Below, in pieces: positions 27,775 to 48,960 of a DNA stretch of 64,000 nt (the first letter of the stretch is position 1; each line of letters opens with the position of its first letter). Source of the DNA: an uncultured candidate division Zixibacteria bacterium (GTDB lineage Bacteria > Zixibacteria > MSB-5A5 > GN15 > FEB-12). A program made the translations under genes and the position numbers. The notes beneath the pieces were generated by a model that did no database searches, had not been told where the DNA came from, and was given only the letters and a program-made list of their open reading frames with translations. The stretch covers positions 832,001-896,000 of the forward strand of contig CAWDXE010000007.1 of assembly GCA_963806185.1 (NCBI GenBank), in the 5' to 3' direction.

Positions 27775-29040
27775 ATGACTTCGGCTCTTAGAACTTCTCT
27801 TATACTCGTCGCGGCCGCTTTCATGGTAGGTTCAACCGCCGCCGCCGAATTGACTCTCGATGATTGTATCGACCTGGCTATGAAGAATCGAGCCGTCATC
27901 ATTCAGTCCCAGGGGGCGGAAAAGCTGGCCGCGGCCGGCAAGCGCAGTGCCCTGGGAGCGTTTTTGCCGAATCTGTCGGCCTCCTACGGGTATGCCGACA
28001 ACTTGAATTCGTCAGCCAAAGGCGACGAACTCGCGGCCAAGTTCGCCTGGAACGTAACACCGATTCCGAGTTATTTTGAATATCGTGCCGCCGCGGCTGA
28101 TCTTGCCGCCGCCCGCCTGGATGTGATCGGCTCCGAACAGGATCTGATCCTGGCCGTTAAGCTGGCCTATTTTAACTACCTGGCGGCCGTGCAGAACGTC
28201 ACGGTCAACGACCAAGCATTGAAGCGCGCCGAAGAACAGCTCAAGCTGATTCAATCCCGCTTTGATCTCGGCTCGGCCTCGCTCTCCGATGTCCTTAAGC
28301 AGAAAGTAGAGTACGGCAATGTAAAGCTTACGCTACTGAAGGCACAGAACCTCGTGACGACCACTCAGGCCAAACTGGCCTACACGATCGGCATCGACCC
28401 CCGGCAGGAACAGGCGTTCTCGTCCACGTTCGCTCCCCGGACCTACGATGGCGCCATGGATGACGCGGTGGCCTTCGCTCTTGAACACAAGCCGGAATTA
28501 CTGTCGGCCCAGAAGTCGCTCGAGTCGGCCGGCTACACGGTGAAGTCGACGATGACGACCTACTTCCCGGAACTGTCCTTTAGTCTCAACGCCGGCAGGT
28601 CATGGTTTTCCGACAAAAACTTTGGCGCCTTCGGCGGCGACAATGATATCTCCAATGAAGGAAGTGTCGGCTACGGTCTGACCTGGAATATATTCGACGG
28701 CTTCAGCCGCGAAGCCCGGGTAGCGTCGGCAAAGGTCTCCCGCAATAACCAGCGGGCTGGTCTGGCCGATTTGCGCAACCGCATCGTCTTTGATGTCAAG
28801 ACGGCTTTCACCGACATTCAGCAGTTTCGTGACCAGCATTCGGTCGCCCAGGAAAACGTGACTGCCTCCGAAGAAGACTTGAAGATTACCCAGGAAAAAT
28901 ACAACCTTGGCGCCGCCACTATTCTGGACCTGCTCAATGCGCAGGTTTCTCTCCGGCAGGCCCAGGTGGATTTGATTCAGGCCGATTTTGATTTGAATCT
29001 GGCCATTTCCCGTCTTGAAAATGCTATGGGCAAAATGTAA
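27775..29040 (+). CDS. TolC-family outer membrane efflux protein
   Basis: Signal peptide, LTLDDCI, WNIFDG, KYNLGAATILDLL. Confidence 0.92.
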   Translation: MTSALRTSLILVAAAFMVGSTAAAELTLDDCIDLAMKNRAVIIQSQGAEKLAAAGKRSALGAFLPNLSASYGYADNLNSSAKGDELAAKFAWNVTPIPSYFEYRAAAADLAAARLDVIGSEQDLILAVKLAYFNYLAAVQNVTVNDQALKRAEEQLKLIQSRFDLGSASLSDVLKQKVEYGNVKLTLLKAQNLVTTTQAKLAYTIGIDPRQEQAFSSTFAPRTYDGAMDDAVAFALEHKPELLSAQKSLESAGYTVKSTMTTYFPELSFSLNAGRSWFSDKNFGAFGGDNDISNEGSVGYGLTWNIFDGFSREARVASAKVSRNNQRAGLADLRNRIVFDVKTAFTDIQQFRDQHSVAQENVTASEEDLKITQEKYNLGAATILDLLNAQVSLRQAQVDLIQADFDLNLAISRLENAMGKM

Positions 29041-29063
29041 CTGTTGAAGGCAGGGTCGAGATA

Positions 29064-30389
29064 ATGCGAAACAAGAAAGTCATTTGGATCAGTGTGGCCG
29101 TGGTGGTCGTCGCCGCCATTGTCGTACTGAACTTCACCACCAACACCAAAAAGTCGACGGACGTCACAGCGGTGACGGTCGGCGCGATGGATCTGACCGA
29201 GCAAGTGTCCGCTTCGGGGCGCATTCAGCCGCAGACCTTTGTTGACATCACCGCCCAGATTAGCGGCAAGATCATCAGCCTGCCGGTCAAGGAGGGCGAT
29301 CCGGTCATCCGCGGCAATCTGCTGGTCGTGTTGGACACCGTTCAACTCCGCAGTGATCTCGATCAGGCCCGCTACGCCGTGAGCGAAATCGACGCCCGCT
29401 TGAATGGCGCCAAGACGTCGCTGGATCAGGCGCGGGAAGAACATGAGCGGCAGCAGCGCCTGCTGAAGCAGAATCTGACCCCGGAAACCACGGCGAAGGA
29501 CGCCATGTATGCGTATGAAGCCGCGAAATCGAATTACACGGCAATGGAAGCTCAGGCCGAACAAACCAAGTCGGGGTATGACAAGGCGCTTGATAACCTG
29601 AGCAAGGCCAAGATTGTGGCGCCGATGGACGGCGTAATCACGCTGGTCGATTGTGAAGTCGGCGAAATCGCTGCCGCCCAGAATGCCTTCACTCAGGGCA
29701 AGACGCTTATGACCATTTCGAACATGAACATTTTCGAGGTCGAAGTCGAAGTGGACGAAACCGAAATTGTCAAAATCCAGCTCGGCCAGAAAGCCAAGAT
29801 TCAAGTCGACGCGTTCCAGGATACGTCGTTTGCCGGCAGCGTGGCTGAAATCGGCAACACGGCTATCATCAAGGGCTCCGGGACACAGGATCAATCGACC
29901 AATTTCAAGGTGAAGATCATCTTTGCGGAAGCCAACGCCGGCATTCGTCCCGGGATGTCAGCCACTGTCGATATTACGACCAATGAACGCAAGGATATTC
30001 TCGGCGTGCCCTATAGTGCCATCGTCATGAGATCCTTCGATATGGACTCCCTCGAGGCGGCCCGCAAAGGTGAAAAGGGGGAGACGTCGATGGTCAGCGA
30101 GGTACAGGCGGCCGAGGGTGACAGTGCCAATCCAGTCAAGCCCAACGGCGCAGAAGAGACTGAACGAAAAGAACTCAAGGGCGTCTTTGTCGTACGCGAC
30201 GGCGTTGCCCGTTTTATCGAAGTTCAGACCGGCATCGCGGACCAGAAGCACATTGAGATCAAGTCCGGCCTGCAGAAGGGCGACTCGGTCATCTCCGGTC
30301 CGTATCGCATCCTGCGCACCGTCAAAGACGGTGAAAACGTTAAGACGTCGGCTAACAAGGGTCCGGGCGAAGAAAGGAAAGAGGCCTAA
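29064..30389 (+). CDS. MacA-like periplasmic adaptor
   Basis: [35 protein letters not shown]. Confidence 0.92.
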
Positions 30390-31093
30390 TGGCGCTCATT
30401 GAAACCAGAGACCTCTGGAAAACTTACCAGATGGGTGCCGAAGAGGTTCATGCCCTGCGCGGCGTCTCAATCAAAATTGAGCGCGGTGAGTATGTCGCCA
30501 TCATGGGACCATCTGGTTCGGGCAAGTCGACCCTGATGAATCTGATCGGCTGCCTCGACACCCCCTCGCGTGGAGACTACATCCTGAACGGCAAAAACGT
30601 CAGCCTGATGAACGACGACGAATTAGCGTCCATCCGGAACCGCGAGATCGGCTTTGTTTTCCAGACGTTCAATTTGCTGGCCCGAGCGACGTCGCTGCAT
30701 AACGTCGAACTGCCGCTCATCTACAACGGTACTCCGGCTGCCGAGCGCCTCGAAATGGCCAAGGCGGCCCTCGCCAAAGTCGCTCTGGCCGATCGCATGA
30801 TGCACAAGCCCAACGAACTGTCCGGCGGACAGCGCCAGCGCGTGGCAGTTGCTCGCGCCCTGGTGAATAACCCGTCGCTCATACTCGCCGACGAACCGAC
30901 CGGCAATCTGGACAGTAAGACATCGCAGGAAATCATGCGCTTGCTCAACGACCTGCATCATCAGGGGAATACCATTATCGTCGTGACGCATGAACACGAT
31001 ATCGCCAAATACGCCCATCGCGTGCTGTCGATTCTCGATGGTGAGATCGCGTCGGATGAAATAAACAGCGCACCAGCTCTGGTGTCCGCCTGA
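30389..31093 (+). CDS. MacB/LolD-type ABC ATP-binding protein
   Basis: [38 protein letters not shown]. Confidence 0.95.
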
Positions 31094-31103
31094 AAGGCAT
31101 CGT

Positions 31104-32327
31104 ATGATCCTCGGCTCACTGGTAAAGATCTCGTTTGACGCCCTGTGGGTGAACAAACTGCGTTCCGGTCTGACTCTGCTCGGCATTCTGATCGGTGTCA
31201 CGTCGGTGATGACGATCGTCTCCGCCCTGGAGGGTATGTCGGATGCCATCAAGCGCGATCTGGAATCGATGGGCCCGAGTACGTTCATGGTCATGAAGAT
31301 GGGCATTGTCACCTCGGACGAAATGTGGTGGGACAAGGTCAAGCGCAAACCGATCAACATGAAGTCGGTCGAACTGGTCGAAGCCGGGTGTACCCTGTGT
31401 GAGAAGATCGCTCCTCGCGCGTTCCAGGGGGCGAATGTCAAATACCGCAACGAAACGCTCCACGACGTCTTCGTTATCGGCAGCACTTCCAACTACGTCG
31501 ATATCGTCGATCTGGAAGTGGCTCAGGGGCGGTTCCACGCCTCTGAAGATGATCTCTACCGCCGCAATGTCGTTTTTGTGGGCGATCAGATTCGCGAGAC
31601 CTTCTTCGAGGGTCTCGATCCTCTGGGCAAGGAAATCCGCCTGGACGATCAGAAGTACACCGTCATAGGTGTGGCCAAGAAGCAGGGATCGACTTTTGGA
31701 GATAATCAGGACAATTTTGTGGTCATCCCGCTGAATTCCTTCTTCAAGCAGTTCGGCGAACCGCGCCGCCGCGGCATCAATATGGTGGTCAAGGCGGTGT
31801 CGGTTGAGCGAATGGGTGAGGCCCAGGACCAGGTGCGGGCCATCCTCCGGGCGCAGCGCCACGTGCCGTTTAATGCCGAGGACGATTTCGACATGCTGAC
31901 TGCCGACAATATCCTCGAGGTTCTCAATTCGATCACCAAAGTGCTCCGCTGGGGCCTGATCGGTATTTCGTCCATTTCTCTGGTGGTGGGCGGCATTGTC
32001 GTCATGAATATCATGATGGTCTCGGTCACGGAGCGAACTCGTGAGATCGGCATCCGCAAAGCGATTGGTGCTCGACAGAAGCATATTTTGGCCCAGTTCT
32101 TGTTTGAATCTCTGATTCTGACCATGTCCGGCGGCCTGGCCGGCATTGTGTTTGGCTATTTGATCGCCAAGTCGCTGGTCGGCATGATCGACATGGAAAT
32201 TCAACCATCGACTCTGGCTATTATGGCTGGTTTGACCATTTCGACTGGTACCGGCCTCATATTCGGTATCTATCCGGCCATGAAGGCTGCGCGACTGGAC
32301 CCTGTAAAAGCAATGAGCTACGAGTGA
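31104..32327 (+). CDS. MacB/FtsX-type ABC permease 1
   Basis: NKLRSGLTLLGILIGV, VGGIVVMNIMMVSVTERTREIGIRKA. Confidence 0.94.
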   Translation: MILGSLVKISFDALWVNKLRSGLTLLGILIGVTSVMTIVSALEGMSDAIKRDLESMGPSTFMVMKMGIVTSDEMWWDKVKRKPINMKSVELVEAGCTLCEKIAPRAFQGANVKYRNETLHDVFVIGSTSNYVDIVDLEVAQGRFHASEDDLYRRNVVFVGDQIRETFFEGLDPLGKEIRLDDQKYTVIGVAKKQGSTFGDNQDNFVVIPLNSFFKQFGEPRRRGINMVVKAVSVERMGEAQDQVRAILRAQRHVPFNAEDDFDMLTADNILEVLNSITKVLRWGLIGISSISLVVGGIVVMNIMMVSVTERTREIGIRKAIGARQKHILAQFLFESLILTMSGGLAGIVFGYLIAKSLVGMIDMEIQPSTLAIMAGLTISTGTGLIFGIYPAMKAARLDPVKAMSYE

Positions 32328-32334
32328 ACCTATC

Positions 32335-33585
32335 ATGCTGATGACTTATGTGGAACTCAAAGACGGTATCGGCATGGCGCTGGGCGCCCTGCGCGCGAAC
32401 AAATTCCGTGCCTTCATGACGATTCTTGGCGTAATGATCGGGGTGAGTTCTGTCATCTGCATGGCGTCGCTCATCAATGGTATGCAGGTCGCCGCGGAGC
32501 AGGAAATCGATTCCATGGGCTCGAATATCATTATGATCACCAAATTTGAGCCGGATACGAACCACGACAATATGACCGAAGACGAACGGAACCGACAGCC
32601 AATCACGGTGGACGAGGCCAACGCGGTGCTCCACAACTGCCCGACGGTTGACGGAGTGTCGCCCCAGAACGCTTACTACAAGCAGGGCGGCAATGAAGTA
32701 AAGTACAAAAATCGCAAGGCCAATAACCCGGTGCTCCTCGGTGTGTGGCCCGACTTCCTGGCGGTAAACAATAAGAACGTTTCCGCGGGCCGGTTCATCA
32801 CTGACGGTGAGGAGCGCATGGGCGCCATGGTAGTGGTGCTGGGCGCATCGATTGCCGAGGCCCTGTTCGAAACCGAGGATCCGGTCGGAAAAAGCATCAG
32901 GGCAAATGGGAATGAATTCGAAGTAATTGGCGTCGTCGAAAAGGTCAAATCATCGTTCGGTAACGATGAGCTCAATAGCCGCGTGATGATGCCCCTCAAG
33001 ACGTTCGAGCGGATTCACCCGTGGGAGGAGGAGCTTTTTCTCGTGGCTCGCGCCCGCAGCACGGCCCTGATTGCGCAGGCCGAGGAAGAAATTATAGCCG
33101 CTTTGCGTGTGCAACGGCGAGTCCCCTTCAACAAGCCGAACGATTTTGCCCTCTCCACCCAGGAGACCTTCAAGGACACCGTTGCCAATATCACCAAGTA
33201 CATCTACCTGGCGATGATTGTGATTACCTCCGTGGGGCTGATGGTCGGCGGTATCGGCGTGATGAACATCATGCTCGTTTCGGTGACCGAACGGACCCGT
33301 GAAATCGGTATTCGCAAAGCGATCGGCGCCCGACGAGTGAATATACTGCTGCAGTTTCTGACCGAGGCTACTACGCTTTCCGGCGCCGGCGGCATCATCG
33401 GTATTATCTTTGGCGTCGGTTTGGGTATGGCGGTCAATGCCATTGCCGGATTCCCGCTCACGGTTTCGGTCTTCTGGATTATCCTCGGTTTCTTGGTCGC
33501 CGTTTCGGTGGGGCTGGTTTCCGGTATGTATCCGGCCGTCAAGGCCTCACGGCTCGATCCGATCGAAGCTCTTCGCTACGAATAA
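32335..33585 (+). CDS. MacB/FtsX-type ABC permease 2
   Basis: VGGIGVMNIMLVSVTERTREIGIRKA, LDPIEALRYE. Confidence 0.94.
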   Translation: MLMTYVELKDGIGMALGALRANKFRAFMTILGVMIGVSSVICMASLINGMQVAAEQEIDSMGSNIIMITKFEPDTNHDNMTEDERNRQPITVDEANAVLHNCPTVDGVSPQNAYYKQGGNEVKYKNRKANNPVLLGVWPDFLAVNNKNVSAGRFITDGEERMGAMVVVLGASIAEALFETEDPVGKSIRANGNEFEVIGVVEKVKSSFGNDELNSRVMMPLKTFERIHPWEEELFLVARARSTALIAQAEEEIIAALRVQRRVPFNKPNDFALSTQETFKDTVANITKYIYLAMIVITSVGLMVGGIGVMNIMLVSVTERTREIGIRKAIGARRVNILLQFLTEATTLSGAGGIIGIIFGVGLGMAVNAIAGFPLTVSVFWIILGFLVAVSVGLVSGMYPAVKASRLDPIEALRYE

Positions 33586-33691
33586 CCCAGTTTCCTCCTT
33601 TCTACGGAATTCTCTTTTTTATTGCCGCCGGTCGTGCGTCTATCTACATTAGTGGTACTTAAGCGGTTGAGGGGTGTATAATTACCGAGGT

Positions 33692-35032
33692 ATGAAAACC
33701 GTGTGCAAGACAGCTCCGGTCGCTCTGGCGACGTTCATCCTGGTCGTGCTGACCGCGGGTGCCGCGGGTGGTCAGATATTCACGCCAAACCAACCCAAGT
33801 CCATGGGGCCGATTATCATCGTCGATGCGGCAGCGTTTGCGACACCCGGAAGTGACTCGGTCCGGCTTGAATTCTACTACCAGATCTACAATTTCGGCCT
33901 GCAATTCAAGGAACAGGATGGCGACTGGGTAGCAGCATACGAATTGTCCGTGTCGGTACTGGACGAAGACGAGGTCCAGGTGGGTTTCCAGGAACGAGCC
34001 CGCGAAATCCGAGTGGCTTCCAACGATCGCACCAAATCGAAGTTCGACCACCGCACCAGCCAGGTCAACTTCATGGTGCTGCCGGGCAAGTACAAGATTA
34101 ACGTCAATCTCCGCGACAAGTCGAATGACGCCACCACCGAGCGCCAGTCGAAAATCACCATCGAGTCACCCGACCGCGATCTGCCGCTGCTCTCCGGCAT
34201 TGAGTTCGCGCAAGCGGTCAATCAGACCGGCGATACCGGAAGTCTGTTCACGAAAGGTGAGTTGGCCGTGGTTCCATCGGTGTCCCGCGCCTTTGGCGGC
34301 GACGGCGATTCCCGCCTCGTGTACTATTTCGAAATCTACCGGGGGAGTGATTCCACCGAGAAAGTGGTCGTGGAATCGATCATCCGCCACCAGTCCAAAG
34401 GAATGATTTATCGCGATACTGTTCACTTCGACTTCAATGGTCCCGTGCTTCGACAGCTCCGTGAAATTGATATCAAGGAATTTGCCCCCGGCACGTACGA
34501 GCTTGAGATTACATTGCGCGGTCGCCGCAACAAGGAATTGGATCAGACCAGACAGGAGTTTGTCGTCCTGTGGACGCAGGATGGCCTGCTGAAACATGAT
34601 TGGAAGACGGCGCTCGATCAACTCTCTTACGTCGCGAATCCAGGCGAACTGGACAGTGTGAAGAGATTGACTTCCTTTGAAGATCGCCGACGGGCGTTTG
34701 ACGCTTTCTGGGCCTCCAAGGACCCTACACTCGGGACACCTGAGAATGAAGTGAAAAAGGAATTCTACCGGCGTATCATTATCGCCAATCAGAATTTCGG
34801 TTATATGCGCCGCGACGGCTGGCGCACCGACCGCGGGCGAATTCTGGTGATGCACGGCGAACCGGATCAAATCGATGATGTTCCGTATTCGGCGTCCGAT
34901 CTGCCGTATCAAATCTGGCATTATTACCGCGACGGTCGGTATCGTCGCTTCACCTTTGTCGATGAAAACCAGGATGGGGACTACCGGCTCGAGTATCCGT
35001 TTGACGGGCTGAATCAGCGCCCCGATTTTTGA
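33692..35032 (+). CDS. GWxTD-domain protein 1
   Basis: Signal peptide; FW..KDP..TPENE..EFY.R...AN..F, GWRTDRGR, GEPD. Confidence 0.88.
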   Translation: MKTVCKTAPVALATFILVVLTAGAAGGQIFTPNQPKSMGPIIIVDAAAFATPGSDSVRLEFYYQIYNFGLQFKEQDGDWVAAYELSVSVLDEDEVQVGFQERAREIRVASNDRTKSKFDHRTSQVNFMVLPGKYKINVNLRDKSNDATTERQSKITIESPDRDLPLLSGIEFAQAVNQTGDTGSLFTKGELAVVPSVSRAFGGDGDSRLVYYFEIYRGSDSTEKVVVESIIRHQSKGMIYRDTVHFDFNGPVLRQLREIDIKEFAPGTYELEITLRGRRNKELDQTRQEFVVLWTQDGLLKHDWKTALDQLSYVANPGELDSVKRLTSFEDRRRAFDAFWASKDPTLGTPENEVKKEFYRRIIIANQNFGYMRRDGWRTDRGRILVMHGEPDQIDDVPYSASDLPYQIWHYYRDGRYRRFTFVDENQDGDYRLEYPFDGLNQRPDF

Positions 35033-35037
35033 GCATC

Positions 35038-36468
35038 ATGATAAAACGATTTTATTTTTTCGCGTGTTGTCTGGCCGCAGGCCTATTCACAGTTACTGCT
35101 TCAGCCCAAACCGAGCCCGAGACTGCCACCATCGCGATCTATGGCGGGCTGACAATTTTCAATAACCCGACCTTTGATTCCGTTTCGCTGGTGGAGTTCC
35201 CGTTTGTGCTGAACCGGGAACAGTTCGACTTCTACAAGGCCGACTCGGCGGCCGAAGGACTCGAGGCCCGCATTTACTGCCGGGCCGTGGTGGCGAATTT
35301 CCAGGGGATCCTCGTAGATTCCGCCAGCACCTACTTCTCGGCTTGGGTCGCAAACGAACAGGAAGCACGGCTCAAGGGGATCAGGCTTTTTAACCAACTC
35401 GACATTTTTCTGAAGCCCGGCCTCTACACTGTGGCGCTCTCCGCCATCGACGTCGTGAGCAAGCGTGAAGGGCAGATCACCTACAATCGGGTGGAGGTTC
35501 CGGCCATTGAACGCGAGCACCTGACGTTGGGGGCCGCCAATCTGGCCTATGCCATCACTCCGGCGACGGCGACAGCCGCGCCGGAAGATCGATCGGTTCG
35601 CAACGGCCTTCGGGTACTCGTTAATCCGGTCCATTGGTTCGGCCCTGCTGACTCCTCGCTGTACTTCTACGGTGAAGTGTACAACCTGAAATATGGCGAT
35701 CAGGAGAAATCGAAATATCGGGTAGCCTCGCACATGGTCGATGCGAAAAACTCTCTGTATCAGGATTTCGGCTTCTCGTTGCGCGACAAGGCGGGAAACA
35801 CGGCGGTATTGTCACAGCGCTACGATATCTCAGCGTACCCTCCCGGGAAATACGGGCTGAATGTGACTGTTACCGACGAGGCGACGCAGCAGAGCGACAC
35901 CGCTTTTCTTCCCTTCAAGATCGTTGCTGAGGGGGCGAACCCTGTTGCCGAGGTGACGGCGGTGGATCCGACCAGCGCCTACGACTCGTTGAGTCTCGAG
36001 GCCAAGCTGGCGCTAGTCTATTATCTCCTGTCCCCGGTAGAGAAGAAGACTCTGGAGGCTTTGTCTCCGACCGGCAAACAGAATTTCATGCAGCAGTACT
36101 GGCGCGAACACGATAGCGACCCGACGACTCGACCCATCGAAAATCAACTGGAGATGATTCGGCGCTACCAGTTCGCGAACGTCAGCTTTTCGACCAATGC
36201 AAACCGCACCAACGGCTGGTCGTCGGATCGCGGCCGGATTTACATGATTTACGGCCCCTGGGACGAACGGGACGACGTCCCGACGCCGGTCACGGGAAAC
36301 CCGTTTGAAGTCTGGTTCTATCGTCAGGTGGACAAGGGGTTGTTATTTGTGTTCGCGGATACGAAGGGAAGTCAAGATCCGCAGCTCGTGCATTCGAATG
36401 CCACGGGTGAGAAATACAGTGACTCCTGGCAGACGATTGTAGATCAGGGGATTTACAACATCAAGTAA
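35038..36468 (+). CDS. GWxTD-domain protein 2
   Basis: Signal peptide; GWSSDRGRIYMIYGP, FEVWFY, FVFAD. Start approximate. Confidence 0.85.
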   Translation: MIKRFYFFACCLAAGLFTVTASAQTEPETATIAIYGGLTIFNNPTFDSVSLVEFPFVLNREQFDFYKADSAAEGLEARIYCRAVVANFQGILVDSASTYFSAWVANEQEARLKGIRLFNQLDIFLKPGLYTVALSAIDVVSKREGQITYNRVEVPAIEREHLTLGAANLAYAITPATATAAPEDRSVRNGLRVLVNPVHWFGPADSSLYFYGEVYNLKYGDQEKSKYRVASHMVDAKNSLYQDFGFSLRDKAGNTAVLSQRYDISAYPPGKYGLNVTVTDEATQQSDTAFLPFKIVAEGANPVAEVTAVDPTSAYDSLSLEAKLALVYYLLSPVEKKTLEALSPTGKQNFMQQYWREHDSDPTTRPIENQLEMIRRYQFANVSFSTNANRTNGWSSDRGRIYMIYGPWDERDDVPTPVTGNPFEVWFYRQVDKGLLFVFADTKGSQDPQLVHSNATGEKYSDSWQTIVDQGIYNIK

Positions 36469-37945: not shown

Positions 37946-40900
37946 TCATGCCCGTTTGCCTAATCGCAGCGGGCGTGCGGCGTTTGAAGTGGCCCCGATC
38001 TTCGCCGCGTAACCCGCTCGTGACACATACTCCTCGTCGGTGATGATATGCGCGTCCAGAAGACCGCCTCGCTTGTAGCCGGTACGCAGGTAGTTGACCT
38101 CGTCAAGGCAAAGACTCCAGCCGGTCAGCCAGGTCTCCAGTAACCGTCGCTGCTCATCGGTGCCGGAGAAATGGACGATCAGATTGATGTCGCTCCGGGG
38201 GCCGGCCGTGGCATTCTTGGTGCTGCCGAAGAGGTACATACCCTTCACGCCCAGCGCGTCCACATCAATCGTCTTCGCCAGTTCCTCGACCATGCGCACG
38301 CGCCAGCGCCAGGCCGTATCGCCGGTTGACTCCACGGGCGTGATGTCGGCTGAATCGGTGACGGCAAACGAGCGCGGTTTCGACAGCAGGCCGATGGCCT
38401 GTTCCAGCCTCGCGTTCATCAGTATCTGAAGAACACTTCCCGCCGCCGTCTGTGGAACGTCAATGACGCGAATACATTCACTCAGATTGGCGAACTCGGG
38501 CAGAATGTCGCCGAGAATGCTGGGCGAGCGCCGGAGAAAGTGTTCATTGAACACGATACCGGGATCATCGGGATAGAGCGGAATATACCGGATGCTTGCT
38601 TCGACCAGATCCTGGAAAAAGTGGGTGCCAAAAGAGAGATCGGGCACGTAGTTGCCTTGCTTGCGGGCGATCTCAATCAGGGCGGCCGTATTACTGATAT
38701 CGGAATAGGTCACACTCACGCCTAGTTTGATGTCGCCCCGGCTGCCCCATCGCCCGGGACCCATCAGGATGAATTGCCGTTTCGGGAGGAGCTTGTTCAG
38801 CTTGCCGACCGCCCGGCCGACCGCCAGCAGCGCGGCTCGTTCGCCCAGCTCAGCGTACCTCTGTGGATCGACATACACAATATGGGTGATGTCAGGCACC
38901 TGACCGTTGGAGATGTACTTCCGGGCCGTGAAAATGATTCGGTTGGGTGCGATGTCCTTGGGAATACGTGCCTCGCTCGTGGCGCTTGAATTGGACTGCG
39001 GGCGACACTGGAGCAGGTAGATGTCCTGGCCGTCGGAGGCGAATTCAAAATCGATCGGACTGCCGATTTCTTCTTGCAGGACCGCGAGCATGGTTGCAAC
39101 CTGCTTCACGAAACTGCTCTGCGAGAAGAGTCCTTCAAAAGTGACGAGGGCGTCCTCCGGCCTGAAATCGACGAGCCGACCAACAAGGCTTCGAATGTGG
39201 TCGCCGTCAAAGATCGACAGTATCTCGGAGAATCGAGGATAGGCGCTGCCGGCCCGGCGGAGAAAATCGGTAAAGACAACCGTCTCAAACGAATTCGTCC
39301 GCAGGTTGATCACATCGATTTTTTTCGGTGAATAGCGAATCTGTTCTTCAACCGTCACATTGACTCGAAGATTCGGCTGCCCGGGGGCGAGCAGAATCGG
39401 GTAATCGTCGCTCACCCGATCGACTGCACGCGTCCCCAAGCCAGGGACGAGCCGCACCAGGCCGTCGTTGCGCTGTATGCGCGGCGACCAGCGAAATTCG
39501 TTGTTGGAGAAGGCGACGCCGGCAAAGGCAGGAAGGAAGTAGTCACCCACGCGGACACCTACCACTTCCTGAATCATGATTCCCATCTCTTCGTAGTAGT
39601 CGAGCAAACCGCGCTCCATCCGGTATTGAATCGGATCGGGCGAGAACGTCGAAGCATAGACCTCGGCGATGGCGTCGCACAGGGCGTCGAGCCGTTCTTG
39701 TTTACTCCCTTGGTTGGCCAAAAAGAGGCTCTTGTACTTGCCGGAGAAGGCGGCGCCGATGCGATCCTCGAGCAGTGATGAGGACCGAACGATTAACGGT
39801 CGCTCGCCCAGATCGTCCAGCGCCATGGCCAGTCCCTTCAGCATTTCCGGGGGGAAGTGGCCGTTCTTGAACGTGTACAGGATGTGGGGGTATTCGGCGC
39901 GAATTTGATCGATCTCATTGTATTTCTGCTCGGCGATCTCCTCGAGATTGTTGTAATTGATAAACGCCATTAACCCGTCGGAAGGGAGGTACCAGGTCTT
40001 GGGCGTCTTGACCGACCGGGTGAGAGAGTTCGCCATTTTGGATTTGTTGAGTATGCGAGAAGCCAGATAGAGACCGGCGCTTTTTCCGCCCAGTTTGCCG
40101 CGACTCTCGGGCAAGAAGATGATTTGATCCACCAGATCGGAGAAGTCATTGACATCGATAAATCGTTTGGCCTTGTCGACAAATTCGACTGACTCAGAGA
40201 AGAATCGGCGAATGAGAGCGGCGTGCATGCCGAACTGCATGGCCGAGGGAAGCTCGATCCCCTGGGGTGCGATCTTGTGATAGCGTCGGACAGCGTCGGC
40301 GATCGCGGGAAGGGAGAGGTCGCGGTTCAGGGCGCGGATGAGAAAGCTCATCTTGTCTTCGTGCATGCGCTTTTGGATGAAGGCGAGAATCTCGTCGTCG
40401 CTCATGTTGTCGACTGCGATTGCAAACGTTGCTACACACATCGCGTCGGTCATGAGAATCGGCGCGCGGCGGCGGTGGGGAATGTTGCTGTCGGCGTACA
40501 CATCCTCATCATCCCGAGGGTCGACATCCGGGGTCTGCAGGAGTTGCTTGGCGCTTTCGATACCGCTCCAGGAGAGGTGGTTGAGCATTTTATGGGAGAT
40601 CGCAAAATAGAGGCTGCGGTCGGTTTCGCGAAGGAGATCGATGACCACCTGCCATTCTTTGCGATCATGGCCGAGCGTGTCCTTGGCCGCCTGCCATTCG
40701 GAGTAGACATGCCGCATCCGTCGATAGACGATATAGTGACCAAGCCGATCGGCGATGGTCTGGATAAGTTTGGTTTCTTCTTTGAGAAACGGACCGTGAT
40801 CGGCTGGGGGGCGCTCTTCTGAGTAATAGATACTGATCCGCCCGAGAGCCTTCTCCTGAGCGATTATATCCGCGCTCTGCACCCAGGAGGTCTCCACAAA

Positions 40901-41125
40901 ACCGTCGGAGATGAAGGTCTGGTCGGCGACAGTTATGACGGCTCGGCAGATGGTCGGGTACTGCCAACCGTCGGGGATTGCCGTTATGATGTCGGCGCAG
41001 ACTTCCGGGAGGTCGGCGTCGGGCCGGTTCAGAATTTCCTCAACGCGCAGCAGGCAGTTGAGTTCCTTGGCGCGTTCCTGCAGGGACAGGAAGAGGGTAT
41101 TGAGCGGTTTGTTCGGTTTCGTCAT
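37946..41125 (-). CDS. PEP/pyruvate-binding (PPDK N-terminal ATP-grasp) protein with GAF-like N-terminus and nucleotidyltransferase-like C-terminus
   Basis: LGGKSAGL, PLIVRSSSLLED, FSGKYKS, MGIMIQEVVG, GLGTRAV, DFEFA, LLQCRP; C-terminal YLFGS...SDINL. Confidence 0.85.
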   Translation of the reverse strand: MTKPNKPLNTLFLSLQERAKELNCLLRVEEILNRPDADLPEVCADIITAIPDGWQYPTICRAVITVADQTFISDGFVETSWVQSADIIAQEKALGRISIYYSEERPPADHGPFLKEETKLIQTIADRLGHYIVYRRMRHVYSEWQAAKDTLGHDRKEWQVVIDLLRETDRSLYFAISHKMLNHLSWSGIESAKQLLQTPDVDPRDDEDVYADSNIPHRRRAPILMTDAMCVATFAIAVDNMSDDEILAFIQKRMHEDKMSFLIRALNRDLSLPAIADAVRRYHKIAPQGIELPSAMQFGMHAALIRRFFSESVEFVDKAKRFIDVNDFSDLVDQIIFLPESRGKLGGKSAGLYLASRILNKSKMANSLTRSVKTPKTWYLPSDGLMAFINYNNLEEIAEQKYNEIDQIRAEYPHILYTFKNGHFPPEMLKGLAMALDDLGERPLIVRSSSLLEDRIGAAFSGKYKSLFLANQGSKQERLDALCDAIAEVYASTFSPDPIQYRMERGLLDYYEEMGIMIQEVVGVRVGDYFLPAFAGVAFSNNEFRWSPRIQRNDGLVRLVPGLGTRAVDRVSDDYPILLAPGQPNLRVNVTVEEQIRYSPKKIDVINLRTNSFETVVFTDFLRRAGSAYPRFSEILSIFDGDHIRSLVGRLVDFRPEDALVTFEGLFSQSSFVKQVATMLAVLQEEIGSPIDFEFASDGQDIYLLQCRPQSNSSATSEARIPKDIAPNRIIFTARKYISNGQVPDITHIVYVDPQRYAELGERAALLAVGRAVGKLNKLLPKRQFILMGPGRWGSRGDIKLGVSVTYSDISNTAALIEIARKQGNYVPDLSFGTHFFQDLVEASIRYIPLYPDDPGIVFNEHFLRRSPSILGDILPEFANLSECIRVIDVPQTAAGSVLQILMNARLEQAIGLLSKPRSFAVTDSADITPVESTGDTAWRWRVRMVEELAKTIDVDALGVKGMYLFGSTKNATAGPRSDINLIVHFSGTDEQRRLLETWLTGWSLCLDEVNYLRTGYKRGGLLDAHIITDEEYVSRAGYAAKIGATSNAARPLRLGKRA

Positions 41126-41207
41126 GGCCTCATACTAATTCATCGGTCGGGCCAATATATAACATGATAGAAGTTGGCGTCATTCAAATTCACCGTCAGT
41201 TTTTGAT

Positions 41208-41241
41208 GAAAAATGCCGGAAGCGGGAAGCGCTTCCGGCAT
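41208..41241 (-). terminator. Terminator-like hairpin after gdhA
   Basis: atgccggaagcg/cgcttccggcat stem with a U-tract on the minus strand. Confidence 0.7.
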
Positions 41242-41282
41242 ATAGATACGTCCGGAAAGACCGGACATGGGAGGGAGAATTC

Positions 41283-42602
41283 TTATACCCAGCCGCGTTC
41301 TTTCGACGCTTGGGCCACACGGCTGATGGCGATCACGTAGGCCGCGTCGCGCATGTACAGTTTGCGCTTGCGGGCCAGTTCGCTGGTCGCCAGGAAAGCT
41401 GAGGTCATCTTCTGATCGAGCTTCGAGAGGACCTCATCCTTCTCCCAGTAGTAGTTCATGTTGCACTGTACCTGTTCGAAGTAGGAGCAGGTCACACCGC
41501 CGGCGTTGGCCAGGAAGTCGGGAATCATGAAGATGCCACGCTCGTGGATCACCTTGTCAGCTTCCGGAGTAGTCGGGCCATTGGCGCCCTCGGCGATGAT
41601 GCGTACTCTCTTCGAAATCTTATTCACGTTCTCGCCGGTTACCTGATTCTCAAGAGCCGACGGGAAGAGAATGTCGACATCCTGTTCGATCCAGGCTTCA
41701 CCCGGCAGGACTTCGTAGCCAAGGTCTTTCGCTTTGTTCTTGTCGATGCCGCCGAAGTGGTCGGTGATGCCGAGCAGAGCGTCCGGGTTGACGCCGTCTT
41801 TTTTGCGGAAGGTGTACGAGCACTGATCGTTCTGATCCCAGCTCGATACGCAAATTGCCTTGCCGCCGAGCTGCTGATAGAGGCGAACGGCGTACTGGGA
41901 GACGTTGCCGAATCCCTGGAAGGCCGCGATGGTGTTCTTCAGGTCGATCCCCAATTCACGGGCTGCTTCACGGACGGTGTAAACGACGCCGTAACCGGTC
42001 GCTTCCGTACGGCCGAGCGAGCCGCCCATGCCGACCGGCTTGCCGGTGATGAGACCGGGGAATTTGCCGCGATGGATGGTTTCGTATTCATCGAGCATCC
42101 ACAGCATGTGCTGGCCGTTGGTCATGACGTCCGGAGCCGGCACGTCGATGAGCGGTCCGATATCGCGTGAGATCTGGCGGACCCAGCCTCGGCAGATCAA
42201 TTCCTGTTCGCGGAGCGACAGGTGGTGCGGATCGCAGATTACGCCGCCCTTGGCGCCGCCGAGCGGGATGTCGACCACGGCCGTCTTCCAGGTCATCCAC
42301 ATGGCCAGGGCACGGACGGTGTCGATGGTTTCGTGGGGGTGGAAGCGGATACCGCCTTTTGACGGACCGCGGGAATCGTTATGCTGCACGCGGAAACCGC
42401 GGAAAATTTTGGTCTTGCCGTCATCCATCTTCACCGGGATGGCAATGTGGTATTCACGCATCGGGAAGCGGAGCAGGTCGCGAGTGGCCAGATCCAGACC
42501 GAGCTGGTCGGCGACCTTATCGAACTGTCCCTGAGCCATGACAAACGGATTAAACGATCCGGCCGCTTCGGCTTTTTTGGCCGTCGGTACAGCGGTACTC
42601 AT
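41283..42602 (-). CDS. gdhA: Glutamate (Glu/Leu/Phe/Val) dehydrogenase
   Basis: RVQHN..RGPSKGGIRFHP, GGAKGG, DVPAPDV, GRTEATGYG, EGANGP, NAGGVTCSYFE. Confidence 0.93.
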   Translation of the reverse strand: MSTAVPTAKKAEAAGSFNPFVMAQGQFDKVADQLGLDLATRDLLRFPMREYHIAIPVKMDDGKTKIFRGFRVQHNDSRGPSKGGIRFHPHETIDTVRALAMWMTWKTAVVDIPLGGAKGGVICDPHHLSLREQELICRGWVRQISRDIGPLIDVPAPDVMTNGQHMLWMLDEYETIHRGKFPGLITGKPVGMGGSLGRTEATGYGVVYTVREAARELGIDLKNTIAAFQGFGNVSQYAVRLYQQLGGKAICVSSWDQNDQCSYTFRKKDGVNPDALLGITDHFGGIDKNKAKDLGYEVLPGEAWIEQDVDILFPSALENQVTGENVNKISKRVRIIAEGANGPTTPEADKVIHERGIFMIPDFLANAGGVTCSYFEQVQCNMNYYWEKDEVLSKLDQKMTSAFLATSELARKRKLYMRDAAYVIAISRVAQASKERGWV

Positions 42603-43131
42603 TCTATTAAACCTCCTCTTATGCAGCTTCGCTCAAGCGCCAATTCAACAATTCCGGCCAATTCAGGGCGCCTTTCGGGCACAAGAAGAGTCTGGGCCGG
42701 CTGGCCCGGCAGCCTGTCGGCGTTTGATGGCGAAGCGCAAAGTCTCATTAAGTGTCGAGTCCTGTTTCCAAATATTGCGGTATATTAAGTGAAACTTTTC
42801 TCAAATGTCAAGCGCGAACGGAAAAATAAGGATGGACTCGTGGAGTGCACTATTCAAAATCTGCACAGCCGATCTGCGAACGCACATCGGCCAGGCGGGT
42901 GCACGTCAGGAATTCTACCGTCCAGCGTATCGCATTGCCTATAAGCATGTTACGGGCATTCCATCAGTGAGGTTTGGCAATGGGTGGTAAACCGGACAAT
43001 GATCGATGTGTTTTAACGGCAAATCTAACATCAGACCGGATCAACACGGCAGGCGAGTCTGGCGAGAGCACAGATATACCCTAATCTTAAAAGCGGAGTC
43101 CGCGAGGAAGATTTGTGCTTTATCCGGTTTC

Positions 43132-44085: not shown

Positions 44086-44282
44086 GCTGGGTCCTGGTGT
44101 CCTTTCTGCCTGCGGTCACTTCATGACCTCGGATAATAAACGGGGTCACAAGAGATAGGGCAAAAGAAAAGTGCGTCCGCCGAAGGGACTTCGGCTGGTC
44201 AATTGCCAGTTGACCCTGCCCGATTGCGCCGATATCTTGGCCCTATATTGTGCTTTGTACGCCACAAAAGGGGAATTCGATC

Positions 44283-44818
44283 ATGAGTAAGCTTGTCGAG
44301 AAGCTGTTGCCCGAGGTAAATCAGATAAAGGATCAGCAACTGCGGACGCAGGTGGTCGCCTGTTGGGATGAAGCGATTGCGTTTCGCGGCTGGACTGAAG
44401 AGTTGTTGCGGGGGATTCCGTTCACGCTGTTGGCGGAGGGGGTGACTATATCGTTTATCGACCATGTGCGGGCGGTTTGCCTGATGTGTGTCGCCTGCGA
44501 CGACGTATTGGACAAAATCCACGCCGAGCGCAAGACAAAGATCAACCGGGATCATTTGATTGCCGGGGCGCTGCTGGCGGATGTCGGCAAACTGCTGGAG
44601 TTCGAGATCGTGAGCGGCAAGCCGGTAAAGTCGGATTACGGGAAACATATTCGGCATCCGTTTGCGGGGTGGGATTGGCGTTCAAGCATGGGGTACCGTC
44701 GGAGGTGATGCATATCATCGCGACTCATTCGAAGGAAGGGACGGGGGAGACGCGGAGTCCGGAGTCGATTGTCTTTCACCATGCGGATTTCATTGATTTT
44801 GATTTGGTGAAGGGGTGA
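44283..44818 (+). CDS. HD-domain phosphohydrolase-like protein (frameshift near 44665)
   Basis: IPFTL..HV, AGALLADVGK, RHPF, then HIIATHS.EG..RSPE..VFHHADF. Promoter TTGACC-N17-TATCTT at 44210-44238. Confidence 0.82.
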
Positions 44819-45591: not shown

Positions 45592-47565
45592 ATGCCCCAA
45601 ACCCTCGTTGAAAAAATCGCCCAAAAGTTTGCCGTCGGCCTTGAGCCCGGGCAACTGGTCAAAGGCGGTGACTATATTTCGATCCGCCCGGCGTACGTCA
45701 TGACCCATGACAATACCGGGGCGGTAATTCCTAAATTCAAATCAATCGGCGCGACCAAGATCTTCAATCCGCGACAGGTGGTCTTTGCGCTCGATCACAA
45801 CGTCCAGGATACGTCGGAAGGGAATCTGAAGAAGTATCGCGGCATCGAGCAGTTTGCCAAGGATCACGGGATTGACTTCTATCCGGCGGGACGGGGCATA
45901 GGTCATCAGATCATGTGCGAAGAGGGGTACGCCTGGCCGTTGACGATGGTGGTGGCCTCCGACAGCCACTCGAACATGTACGGTGGCCTGGGGTGTCTGG
46001 GGACGCCGATTGTCCGGACTGATGCGGCGGCGATCTGGTCGACCGGGCGGACCTGGTGGCAGGTGCCGCCGATTGCCAAGGTGGTGCTCAAGGGGAAATT
46101 GCATCCGGGTGCGACCGGGAAAGATGTCATCATCACTCTGTGCGGGTTCTTCAACAAGGACGAAGTGTTGAATCATGCGGTCGAGTTTTCCGGCGAAGGG
46201 ATTCAGCGGCTGTCCATTAACGACCGATTGGCGATTGCCAATATGACGACCGAATGGGGAGCGCTGGCGGGTGTGTTCCCGATTGACCATGTGACCATCG
46301 ACTGGTTGCGCAAGCGAGCCGATTTCATCGCCAAGCGGGGTCTGGCCAAGGTACCGTCGGACGCCGACGGGAAGGGACATCATCCGCGCATGGGTTTTGA
46401 ACGGGTGGCGGAACTCGAGATGAATCCGCTGCACCCCGATCACGGGGCGTTTTATGCCAAGGAGCTTCATCTCGATCTGGCGTCAGTGGTGCCGCATGTG
46501 TCGGGACCTGATACGGTGAAGACGATGTCACCGATTTCGGTCATCCGAGAACAACGCGTGAAGATTGACAAGGCGTACCTGGTGTCGTGCGTGAACAGCC
46601 GGGTCGACGATCTTGCGGCAGCCGCGAACGTAATCAAAGGGAAGAAGGTTGCGCAAGGGGTGAAGTTCTATATCGCGGCGGCATCGAGCGAAGTTCAAGC
46701 CGAGAGCGAACGTCGCGGCGACTGGCAGGCGCTCCTGGATGCAGGGGCGATTCCGTTGCCGCCCGGGTGCGGACCGTGCATCGGTCTGGGGACCGGTTTG
46801 CTTGAGGACGGCGAAGTCGGCATTTCAGCGACCAACCGGAATTTCAAGGGGCGGATGGGGTCGAAGAGTGCCCATGCGTACCTGGGATCGCCGGAAGTCG
46901 TGGCGGCTTCGGCGGTGGCCGGAATCATCGATATGCCGGAGGCGCACAAGGTGGTGCCGGTGGTAGCCTCGGTGAAAGAGAATCATCGCGAGGGAGTTGC
47001 AGCCGCGAAGGTGCGAATCGTCAAGGGATTTCCGCCCGTGGTAGACGGGGAGTTGATCTACTGCCATCAGGACAACATGAACACCGATGGCATTTACCCC
47101 GGCAAGTACACCTATCAGGATGACATGACACCGGCGCAGCAGGCGCAGGTGGTGATGGAGAATTACGATCCGGAGTTCGGGAAGATCGTCAAAGAGGGTG
47201 ATCTGCTGGTGGGCGGCTTCAATTTCGGCACCGGATCATCGCGCGAACAGGCGGCGACAGCGCTGAAATATCGCGGCGTGCGGCTGGTGATTGGCGGATC
47301 GTTTAATGAGACCTATAAGCGGAACGCGTTGAATAACGGATTCCTGGCGGTGGAAGCGCCGGAACTAGTGAATGATTTAAAGGAGAAATTCGGCGCGGAG
47401 AAGCTGACCGTGCGAACGTCGATACAAGCGAAGATCGATTTTGCCGATTCGGTGCTTCAAGCCGACGGCAAGGAGTACGCCATTGGATCAATCGGTGCGG
47501 CAGCGCAGGAGTTGATAGTGACCGATGGGCTGGAGAACTGGGTGAAGAAGAATCTCAAGGGTTAA
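45592..47565 (+). CDS. lysF: Single-chain homoaconitase, fungal Lys4/LysF type (aconitase family)
   Basis: QTLVEKI..GDYISIRP..THDN, ASDSHSNMYGG, VSCVNSR, CGPCIGLG, SATNRNFKGRMG, NTDGIYPGKYTY, GSSREQAA. Large and swivel domains are fused. Confidence 0.87.
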   Translation: MPQTLVEKIAQKFAVGLEPGQLVKGGDYISIRPAYVMTHDNTGAVIPKFKSIGATKIFNPRQVVFALDHNVQDTSEGNLKKYRGIEQFAKDHGIDFYPAGRGIGHQIMCEEGYAWPLTMVVASDSHSNMYGGLGCLGTPIVRTDAAAIWSTGRTWWQVPPIAKVVLKGKLHPGATGKDVIITLCGFFNKDEVLNHAVEFSGEGIQRLSINDRLAIANMTTEWGALAGVFPIDHVTIDWLRKRADFIAKRGLAKVPSDADGKGHHPRMGFERVAELEMNPLHPDHGAFYAKELHLDLASVVPHVSGPDTVKTMSPISVIREQRVKIDKAYLVSCVNSRVDDLAAAANVIKGKKVAQGVKFYIAAASSEVQAESERRGDWQALLDAGAIPLPPGCGPCIGLGTGLLEDGEVGISATNRNFKGRMGSKSAHAYLGSPEVVAASAVAGIIDMPEAHKVVPVVASVKENHREGVAAAKVRIVKGFPPVVDGELIYCHQDNMNTDGIYPGKYTYQDDMTPAQQAQVVMENYDPEFGKIVKEGDLLVGGFNFGTGSSREQAATALKYRGVRLVIGGSFNETYKRNALNNGFLAVEAPELVNDLKEKFGAEKLTVRTSIQAKIDFADSVLQADGKEYAIGSIGAAAQELIVTDGLENWVKKNLKG

Positions 47566-47591: not shown

Positions 47592-48960
47592 ATGGACAAG
47601 TCACTTTCTCGCCAGATCGCGGAGTTCGCGGTCGGGCTAAAATACAGCGACCTCCCGAAGGAGGTCGTTCACGAAGTAAAGCGGTATCTGTACGATTCGA
47701 TCGGGTGTGCCTACGGCGGGTATCGAACGAAAGACGTCAATATCCTCCGCGACATCTACAAGGATATGGGGGGTAAGCCGGAGGCGACGGTGATCGGCTT
47801 CGGCGACAAGATACCGGCAGTGAATGCGACGCTGGTCAATTCGCTGATGATCCGGGCGCTGGATTTCAATGACATCTATTGGAAAGAAGATCCAAGCCAT
47901 CCGTCGGATATTATTCCAGCGGCGCTGGCGGTCGGCGAGGTGATGAATTCGTCGATGGAGGAAGTGATTGTCGCGATCGTGCTGGCGTATGAATTCGAAC
48001 AGCGGCTCTGCGAGTTCGCCACGCCGGGGGTGCGAGAACGGAAGTGGCACCATGCGACGCTGACCCAGTTTGTGTCGCCGATCGTGGCAGGTAAGCTGAT
48101 GGGGCTTTCGGTGGACAAGATGGTGAACGCGATCGGAATCAACGGGTGCCACAATCATACGATCGGTTGTCCGACGGCGGGCAAACTGACGATGATGAAG
48201 AACACGGTTGACCCGATGGCGGTGCAGAGCGGGGTGTTTGCGGCGATGATGGCCGCCAAGGGGTATTCGGGCACGGAAGCGGTGTTCGAGGGGAAAGAGG
48301 GATTCATGGATTGCTTCGGCCCCGGCTGGGCGAACGAGAAGCTGGTCGGCGGGCTGGGGCAGAAATATCAAGATTCTCGAGTGCGGCATGAAGGCGTTTC
48401 CGACCGAGGCGCTCACGCACACGCATATAACCTGTACGTTGAAAGTAATCCGCGACAACGATATCACGCCGGAGCAGATCGAGACGGTGACGGTGACGAC
48501 GATCGCGCGGGCGTGCGATATTCTGTTTGACCAGCACAAGTATCATCCGGACTCACGCGAGACGGCGGATCATTCGCTGCCGTATTGTATCGCGGCGGCG
48601 ATCGTGGATCGTCAGATCACGACCGCCAGTTTCTCGGATGAGAAGTTGAAAGACCCGCGCATCTGGGAGGTGATCACGAAGATCAAAGGGGAAGCGTCGA
48701 AAGAATTCGAAGCGATGTTTCCGGCCAAGCAGCCCTCGAAGGTGGTGGTGCGGACGACGGCGGGGAAGGAGTTCTCGGCGTACCTGGAGTATCCGAAGGG
48801 TGATCCGCGCGAGCCGATGACGCAGGATGATTTGCGGGCGAAGTTTAATGCGCTGTCATCGCACCTGTTTGATGCGCAGCGTCAGGCGAAGCTGGAGCAG
48901 GTGATCATGAATTGTGCGCCGTTGACGGCGGTGGAGTTTATGGGGGGGCTGGGCGCGTAG
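47592..48960 (+). CDS. prpD: MmgE/PrpD-family dehydratase (frameshift near 48370)
   Basis: RALDFND, SHPSD, MMKN, EGKEG, ETADHSLPY, YPKGDPR. Confidence 0.88.

Follow-up and report, generated by a model that had tools for sequence, protein, structure and literature searches.

A 64,000-nucleotide stretch of the genome of an uncultured Zixibacteria bacterium (contig CAWDXE010000007.1, positions 832,001 to 896,000; hereafter the window) carries, next to a gene for glutamate dehydrogenase (GDH; gene gdh), a gene for a 1059-residue protein, P0001, in which a GAF sensor, an ATP-grasp domain related to that of phosphoenolpyruvate (PEP) synthase, a histidine domain and a nucleotidyltransferase tail are predicted. 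The family to which this protein belongs is real, widespread, tied specifically to GDH and apparently undescribed, and on balance we think it probable, if by a modest degree, that P0001 is a GAF-sensor dikinase-like regulator acting directly on GDH. This reading draws on comparative genomics and structure models, from which we infer every chemical step. No description of the family was found in the open literature, a search that leaves most subscription journals uncovered, and the family is not mentioned in the accessible portions of PMC5552732, PMC4539542 and PMC12596196.

Results

A large family in three architectures

A first reading made from the letters of the window alone (the sequence-only reading) had treated P0001 as a single fusion protein. 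It is instead one member of a large family, whose size rests on candidate scoring: 7825 of 7999 scored candidates matched, with full-length identities of 55-64% for the best, and the closest named homologues of P0001 come from Zixibacteria. The members fall into three types. Type A, to which P0001 belongs, comprises the GAF domain, a helical region, the ATP-grasp and histidine domains and usually the nucleotidyltransferase tail (1059 residues in P0001); type B (about 585 residues) consists of the ATP-grasp and histidine domains only; and type C (about 1000 residues) has a receiver domain in front. Types B and C never carry the nucleotidyltransferase tail. The source genome has all three types, and the usual gene order across the family is gdh, B, A. 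Proteins of about 1630-1650 residues (P0018, P0023, P0027 and L022) match type A in full. L022 carries type B ahead of type A in a single protein, an arrangement suggesting that the two types work as a complex.

Linkage and co-occurrence with glutamate dehydrogenase

In the window the two genes lie on the same strand, gdh being 157 bases upstream of the kinase-like open reading frame (ORF), which is free of stops throughout, as the sequence-only reading had stated (Table 1). That reading had also proposed that adjacency to gdhA be quantified among homologues; a gdh is present in the flanks, taken as 6 kb, at 70 of 80 related loci, which come from 16 named phyla (10 loci have no phylum), and the 10 loci without gdh divide into eight with an upstream flank cut by a contig end and two with full flanks. 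Clustering of ORFs over 119 loci recovered the kinase-like gene in 114 and gdh in 103, and no third conserved gene in these loci, the biggest other cluster (overlapping-frame ORFs excluded) being confined to 15 of them.

In trees built with FastTree, the GDH sequences encoded next to type A (80, and a further partial one) group as a separate clade, set off by a long stem (0.57, support 0.81). Membership of this clade was called at E <= 1e-170, where scores drop from 573 to 479 bits, and five matches that covered the GAF domain alone were excluded from the type A calls. Among 150 genomes of the phylum, 84 then hold both type A and the A-linked GDH clade, 65 hold neither, one holds the GDH only and none holds the kinase only. 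Both kinds of genome occur in nine genera (26 genomes checked by hand), and six gdh loci (L167-L170, L177 and L178) have no kinase gene nearby, yet the genome keeps one. Type A and one GDH clade co-occur almost perfectly, being gained and lost together.

Type C is paired with a different GDH. It occurs in 46 of the 150 genomes, all of which have a GDH of the NADP (nicotinamide adenine dinucleotide phosphate) type, itself present in 100, and in 41 of the 46 the two genes lie within 5 kb of each other; 15 of the 46 have no A-linked GDH. The NADP-type GDH is often found without type C (54 genomes), as would be expected if type C were a regulator and not an indispensable subunit. In Parabacteroides distasonis and Phocaeicola massiliensis the type C gene is likewise a neighbour of gdhA, but no gdh was found within 6 kb in the Prevotella type C record. 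At the Parabacteroides distasonis locus (L133:10053-13733) a nucleotidyltransferase-family gene and rapZ separate the type C gene from a second gdh.

The source genome has a second cluster (L131, G000:C7:122754-135558) with, in addition to a gdh, a metallophosphoesterase gene, type A with an intact tail (C7:125077-128259), type B, a NarL-type regulator, an NADP-type gdh and type C. In this cluster the gdh next to the type A and B genes lies outside the A-linked clade, with 41% identity to the window's GDH; it is the window that holds the clade's gene. The window's GDH retains Lys82, Lys106, Lys118, Asp158 and Ser373, which we take to serve catalysis and glutamate specificity. Trp255, in an insertion that follows the second Rossmann strand, is invariant throughout the A-linked GDH clade, of which His126, His165 and several Cys residues are also typical; the two histidines are speculative candidates for a site of modification.

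Sensor, helical region and ATP-grasp domain

A structure model of P0001 built from 148 sequences reached a mean predicted local distance difference test score (pLDDT) of 87.7. Its residues 10-144 superpose on the GAF domain 3cit with Z 12.7 and a root-mean-square deviation (rmsd) of 2.2 over 123 aligned residues, and the same module occurs on a HisKA_3/HATPase kinase of the source genome, so that the GAF-type input domain seen by the sequence-only reading holds up, even though a Pfam scan of the N-terminal module gave no match. That reading had overlooked the next region, of about 180 residues (157-332), which is all-helical; an Atlas search with residues 150-340 gave only leads under 0.9. The ATP-grasp domain, which had been called a full PPDK (pyruvate phosphate dikinase)/PEP-synthase type, is just that: PF01326 (PPDK_N) matches residues 344-724 with E 7.5e-56, and Lys348, Arg447, Asp692, Glu694, Gln706 and Arg708, which presumably bind ATP and Mg as in PPDK, are invariant in all 148 homologues. 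The best fold match of this domain alone is rifampin phosphotransferase (RPH; Z 25.1), with PEP synthase and HpeI also among the best.

A predicted phospho-histidine domain

The region following the ATP-grasp domain contains a family-specific GPGRWGS loop and His835, the candidate phospho-histidine pointed out by the sequence-only reading. His835, within SFGTHFFQDL, is present in 187 of 187 aligned type A homologues, is invariant across 83 A, B and C domains and opens a helix in the model. Among 98 A, 58 B and 10 C proteins, nearly all retain the ATP-site and histidine motifs, and the GRWG loop is kept in 98/98, 53/58 and 10/10, respectively. Folded alone, the domain reached a pLDDT of 91.4. 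A profile search of the PDB with it returned chance matches only; Foldseek with the domain alone gave no match at E 0.001, its weak list holding swivel-fold proteins (chaperonin apical, PA and LD-carboxypeptidase); and an Atlas search with residues 715-920 returned only unnamed clusters of the same family.

The whole model (residues 305-916) superposes on PEP synthase 2ols (chain 13-467) with Z 24.9 and rmsd 3.9 over 357 aligned residues, on RPH 5hv3 with Z 26.0 and rmsd 3.8 over 376, and on PPDK 1dik with Z 17.2 over 347. This joint superposition of the ATP-grasp and histidine domains gains 50-90 residues over the ATP domain alone (about 280-296 aligned). Because of the joint superpositions and the invariant His835, residues 720-916 are predicted to be a phospho-histidine swivel domain seated on the ATP domain as in dikinases. 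A description of the family as 'swivel-less' is rejected in view of the joint superposition on dikinases.

The nucleotidyltransferase tail

The C-terminal tail gives Pfam nucleotidyltransferase matches at residues 958-999 that stay below the cut-off, whereas the genome's type A paralogue scores above the cut-off for PF01909, and a search with a profile built from 37 tails retrieves nucleotidyltransferases of the minimal, kanamycin and MntA kinds (E 6e-4 to 8e-3). The motif is strongly conserved, with Gly967 in 187, Ser968 in 181, Asp979 in 187, Asp981 in 183 and Asp1024 in 187 of 187 sequences; the three carboxylates are therefore present in the family and incomplete in P0001, where Asn981 replaces the second. 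The sequence-only reading had described just such a Pol-beta-type tail with Asn for the second Asp, which is true of the assembly and atypical of the family. The Asp981Asn change is found in 6 of 98 type A proteins from loci, P0001 included, and arose at least three times in a tree of 148 sequences, which points to a recurring natural change. The residue may also stem from a base error, the same assembly containing several split genes. Judged by its sequence, the tail of P0001 is probably impaired or inactive.

In at least six type A proteins, five of them encoded beside gdh, the chain ends after the histidine domain, and the paralogue in the source genome has an intact tail motif. Four full-length extra copies from genomes with several copies were compared: the motif is damaged in three (G084, G087 and G119) and intact in G123; the tail-less extra copies were picked for shortness, so no rate can be derived from them. 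The Asp981Asn change in P0001, the intact paralogue and the tail-less members that are still beside gdh together suggest that the tail is an accessory and dispensable output. A link between tail loss and the absence of type B was rejected, since tailed and tail-less states each occur with and without B.

The likely signal

The GAF family of P0001 also heads a HisKA_3/HATPase histidine kinase in the source genome that is two genes from an ammonium transporter gene (amt). There, at G000:C1:911493-915440 (L132), the GAF histidine kinase, a NarL-type regulator, the ammonium transporter and a 246-residue predicted exported protein stand in one run, a layout kept at 15 of 20 orthologous loci, which looks like two-component control of amt via the same GAF family. 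Fifteen of 20 orthologues of this kinase, fetched from about 29 listed, lie beside amt and one beside gdh; the 15 share ancestry and therefore count as one line of evidence, not fifteen. A second class of GAF kinases (L200-L219) has a sigma-54 regulator in 18 of 20 loci, an unassigned 115-residue Cys-rich protein in 14, and NuoE- and NuoF-like genes in 11 and 9, respectively. Nitrogen status is the likeliest signal for the GAF domain.

Predicted contact with GDH and points against direct action

The sequence-only reading had proposed structure prediction of P0001 alone and with GDH. The protein folds in silico as described above, and the complex passed only weakly. When the core (residues 342-916) was folded with GDH residues 16-439 from row-matched paired alignments of 80 sequences that we made ourselves, the complex scored 0.48 (runs 0.48, 0.54 and 0.44) and the best control 0.00, the runs agreed in at least 70% of contacts, and the pLDDT of the partners was at least 89. 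The pass mark is reached by 116 of 157 solved complexes and by 2 of 215 mismatches. The model thus weakly suggests that the core binds GDH, and this score matters mainly because the genomic evidence had made the pair likely beforehand.

Several observations weigh against direct action on GDH. The score of 0.48 falls in the range (<= 0.60) that holds 18 of the 157 solved complexes and both passing mismatches, 7 of 44 blindly picked neighbours passed the same test, and the prediction gave a score without an interface. The histidine domain is faint by sequence: Pfam finds nothing in P0001 and noise alone in 83 members, and a profile-profile comparison with canonical histidine domains of related genomes and PF00391 was not significant (best E 0.078). 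Taken alone, the domain matches the PPDK carrier (Z 5.1), the RPH histidine domain (4.8) and enzyme I (4.5) no better than other swivel-fold proteins, a DRTGG domain (5.5) scoring above them, and AlphaFold may have learned its placement on the ATP domain from solved dikinases. RPH and HpeI, which are close in structure, act on small molecules. As to the signal, the second GAF-kinase class lies near gdh in 6 of 20 loci (partly picked for gdh), and because this class also lies near NuoE/F-like genes, redox could be what the GAF domain senses. On the genomic side, co-occurrence among kin overstates independence, a very similar pattern would result if the genes moved as a single cassette, the Mantel correlation (r 0.49) has no species-tree control, and one 99% complete genome has an A-linked GDH (L166, G013:C2:1140712-1142013) for which no kinase-like partner was found.

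Layout of the locus and neighbouring genes

A strong terminator-like hairpin, missed by the sequence-only reading, separates gdh from the kinase-like gene. Such sites occur 3' of related gdh genes in 22 of 79 cases, against 2 of 79 shuffled sequences. The hairpin would give less kinase than GDH, as would suit a regulator. Promoter-like sites in the region number 7 against 2.2 expected.

Table 1. Features of P0001 and its surroundings (window positions).
Feature	Residues	Position	Strand	Remarks
Sigma-70-like promoter match upstream of gdh		42782..42811	-	10/12; consensus match only
Glutamate dehydrogenase gene (gdh)		41283..42602	-	439 residues; distinct family-II clade
Terminator-like hairpin between gdh and the kinase-like gene		41203..41241	-	12 pairs, 8 of them G-C, then a T run
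Weak promoter-like match before the kinase-like gene		41154..41183	-	9/12; consensus match only
Type A GDH-linked dikinase-like gene (P0001)		37946..41125	-	1059 residues; no internal stop
GAF domain	10-144	40694..41098	-	Fold match; same family on histidine kinases beside amt
All-helical region	157-332	40130..40657	-	No known family
PEP-synthase/RPH-type ATP-grasp domain	344-716	38978..40096	-	Pfam and fold
Histidine domain, swivel fold (beta/beta/alpha)	720-916	38378..38968	-	Family-specific GPGRWGS loop
Predicted phospho-histidine	His835	38621..38623	-	Invariance and model
Minimal Pol-beta nucleotidyltransferase tail	938-1055	37961..38314	-	Gly967-Ser968, Asp979, Asn981, Asp1024
Asn replacing the family's second catalytic Asp	Asn981	38183..38185	-	

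Elsewhere in the window, a single-chain homoaconitase of the TIGR00139 type (45592-47565; 891.6 bits, cut-off 529.9), a family we take to be mainly fungal, directly precedes a PrpD-family gene, and two tandem GWxTD-domain proteins (33674-36468) follow a TolC / membrane-fusion / ABC exporter operon (27775-33585; assigned from translations). The PrpD-family gene (47592-48960), a probable HD-type gene (44250-44818) and, outside the window, the canonical PPDK gene (G000:C7:282785-285357) are split between frames, probably through indel errors in the assembly.

Discussion

Proposed mechanism and known relatives

In the scheme that we favour, the GAF domain would report nitrogen status, its ligand perhaps being glutamine, 2-oxoglutarate or a similar compound, and the ATP-grasp domain would likely load phosphate from ATP onto the protein's own His835. 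In the dikinase chemistry of PEP synthase and RPH the beta-phosphate goes to the histidine, with release of AMP and inorganic phosphate. The core would then dock on GDH, as the complex model weakly predicts, and switch GDH activity. Within this scheme it is a tentative further step that the phosphate is passed on to GDH, though a likelier one than binding that depends on phosphorylation without transfer, which we hold rather unlikely. The tail would be an accessory output, probably inactive in P0001, with the genome's other type A copy supplying it instead.

The closest described parallel is mycobacterial VadK (Rv1127c), which in the accessible part of its description is a PPDK without the pyruvate domain that autophosphorylates on His422, binds methylcitrate-cycle enzymes and is proposed to regulate them (PMC13400623). 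By that described architecture VadK and P0001 are alike in having PPDK-derived ATP and histidine domains and no pyruvate domain, and VadK differs in having neither a sensor nor a nucleotidyltransferase domain; glutamate dehydrogenase has no occurrence in the same accessible text. The histidine domain of P0001 is also too divergent to match PF00391. By analogy, the best reading is that P0001 would work like VadK.

Other relatives share parts of the design. Enzyme I-Ntr (PtsP), whose GAF domain senses nitrogen, likewise combines a GAF domain with a phospho-histidine swivel fold; its GAF domain (3trc) matches that of P0001 with Z 11.0, not above unrelated GAF domains, and it uses PEP and a TIM barrel rather than ATP and an ATP-grasp domain. 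GlnD and GlnE are large nucleotidyltransferases with helical, HD or ACT domains that act on PII or glutamine synthetase. They resemble P0001 in joining a Pol-beta nucleotidyltransferase to regulatory domains in a nitrogen setting, but the tail of P0001 is minimal, MNT-like and dispensable, and the partner is GDH, not PII or glutamine synthetase. No GlnD/GlnE family matched in Pfam or NCBIfam, and no glnB or glnA cluster was among the recurring neighbours. The analogy to GlnD/GlnE drawn by the sequence-only reading is thus weak for P0001, in which a catalytic Asp is lost and some of whose tail-less relatives stay beside gdh.

Alternative explanations

Database labels would make P0001 an ordinary PEP synthase or PPDK: the source names the family pyruvate,water dikinase, PF01326 matches, and the order of an ATP-grasp domain with intact ATP-site residues followed by a swivel histidine domain, recognizable by fold and undetectable by sequence, is that of 2ols and 1dik. 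Those enzymes have a C-terminal pyruvate barrel, whereas P0001 has a sensor in front and, behind the histidine domain, only 143 residues, which are a nucleotidyltransferase. Neither Pfam and NCBIfam scans nor fold searches turned up a pyruvate-binding TIM barrel, the PEP synthase model TIGR01418 scores 49.7 bits against a cut-off of 739.75, and a canonical PPDK locus exists elsewhere in the genome, so this explanation is barely credible; the sequence-only reading, which saw no barrel and doubted a true PEP synthase, judged this point well. A dikinase with a small-molecule substrate is a stronger contender, albeit an unlikely one. Phospho-His835 would phosphorylate a metabolite that either binds at the GPGRWGS loop or is handed over by GDH, and the two genes would form a short pathway. 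The best fold matches of the ATP domain are RPH (5hv1, 5hv3), PEP synthase and HpeI (9goj), the histidine domain takes the same place in the model as in RPH and HpeI, the GRWG loop kept in all three types could bind an anion, and two-way co-occurrence with one GDH clade fits a pathway. HpeI acts on small molecules, and RPH has a substrate-binding domain between its ATP and histidine domains. In P0001 the histidine domain follows the ATP-grasp domain directly and no partner gene besides gdh and the paralogues is conserved; type B, being ATP-grasp and histidine domain only, therefore has no domain for a small acceptor. Neither A nor B has an acceptor-binding domain, nor is there a conserved partner gene to supply one, and the NCBIfam scores for the RPH family (27.7 bits, cut-off 999) and PigC are far below cut-off. 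GDH moreover retains its usual glutamate-site residues, the swappable GAF and receiver inputs point to regulation, and the NADP-type GDH often lacks a type C partner.

A signalling relay, in which the phosphate goes to another protein (a response regulator or an HPr-like or PII-like protein) and the genes lie beside gdh through control of gdh expression or of nitrogen genes, would account for the occurrence of this GAF domain on histidine kinases encoded next to amt and NarL-type regulators and for the NarL-type regulator inside the genome's second cluster; enzyme I, which has the same fold, phosphorylates a protein. We consider it distinctly unlikely, since the 119 loci show no conserved regulator or phosphocarrier gene next to the cassette, types A and C go with different types of GDH, and the complex prediction with GDH did pass, if weakly. 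It would be still more surprising if nucleotidylation were the main output, the tail adding AMP or UMP to GDH, much as GlnE nucleotidylates glutamine synthetase, while the dikinase core only controls or reverses the modification. The near-complete conservation of the three Asp residues of the tail, the match of its profile to minimal nucleotidyltransferases including MntA, and the metallophosphoesterase that adjoins the intact paralogue speak for this proposal; Asn981 in P0001, the tail-less type A proteins, most of them beside gdh, the absence of the tail from types B and C, and the lack of conservation of the phosphoesterase as a neighbour speak against it. A more ambitious form of the regulator reading is possible but doubtful. 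Sensor-gated dikinases would pass the beta-phosphate via the swivel histidine to GDH, type A (with B) acting on one GDH clade and type C on the NADP-type GDH, and the type A tail would add nucleotidylation as a second mark. Such a widespread converter system would give GDH a counterpart to the GlnD/GlnE cascade, and it would supply the trans-acting gene downstream of gdhA in Bacteroides that is reportedly named in the title of a 1996 paper by Baggio and Morrison.

Significance

GDH stands at the junction of carbon and nitrogen metabolism, and a dedicated enzyme that switches it was not found in the open literature. If P0001 is a GAF-sensor dikinase-like regulator of GDH, regulators would make up thousands of the proteins that currently bear the label PEP synthase or pyruvate,water dikinase, and the metabolic reconstructions of many anaerobes would change. 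The position of type C beside gdhA in gut Bacteroidales makes the proposal testable in culturable strains. Older reports are said to describe post-translational control of Bacteroides GDH, which the family, if it acts as proposed, may explain; it would then represent an undescribed control point in bacterial nitrogen metabolism.

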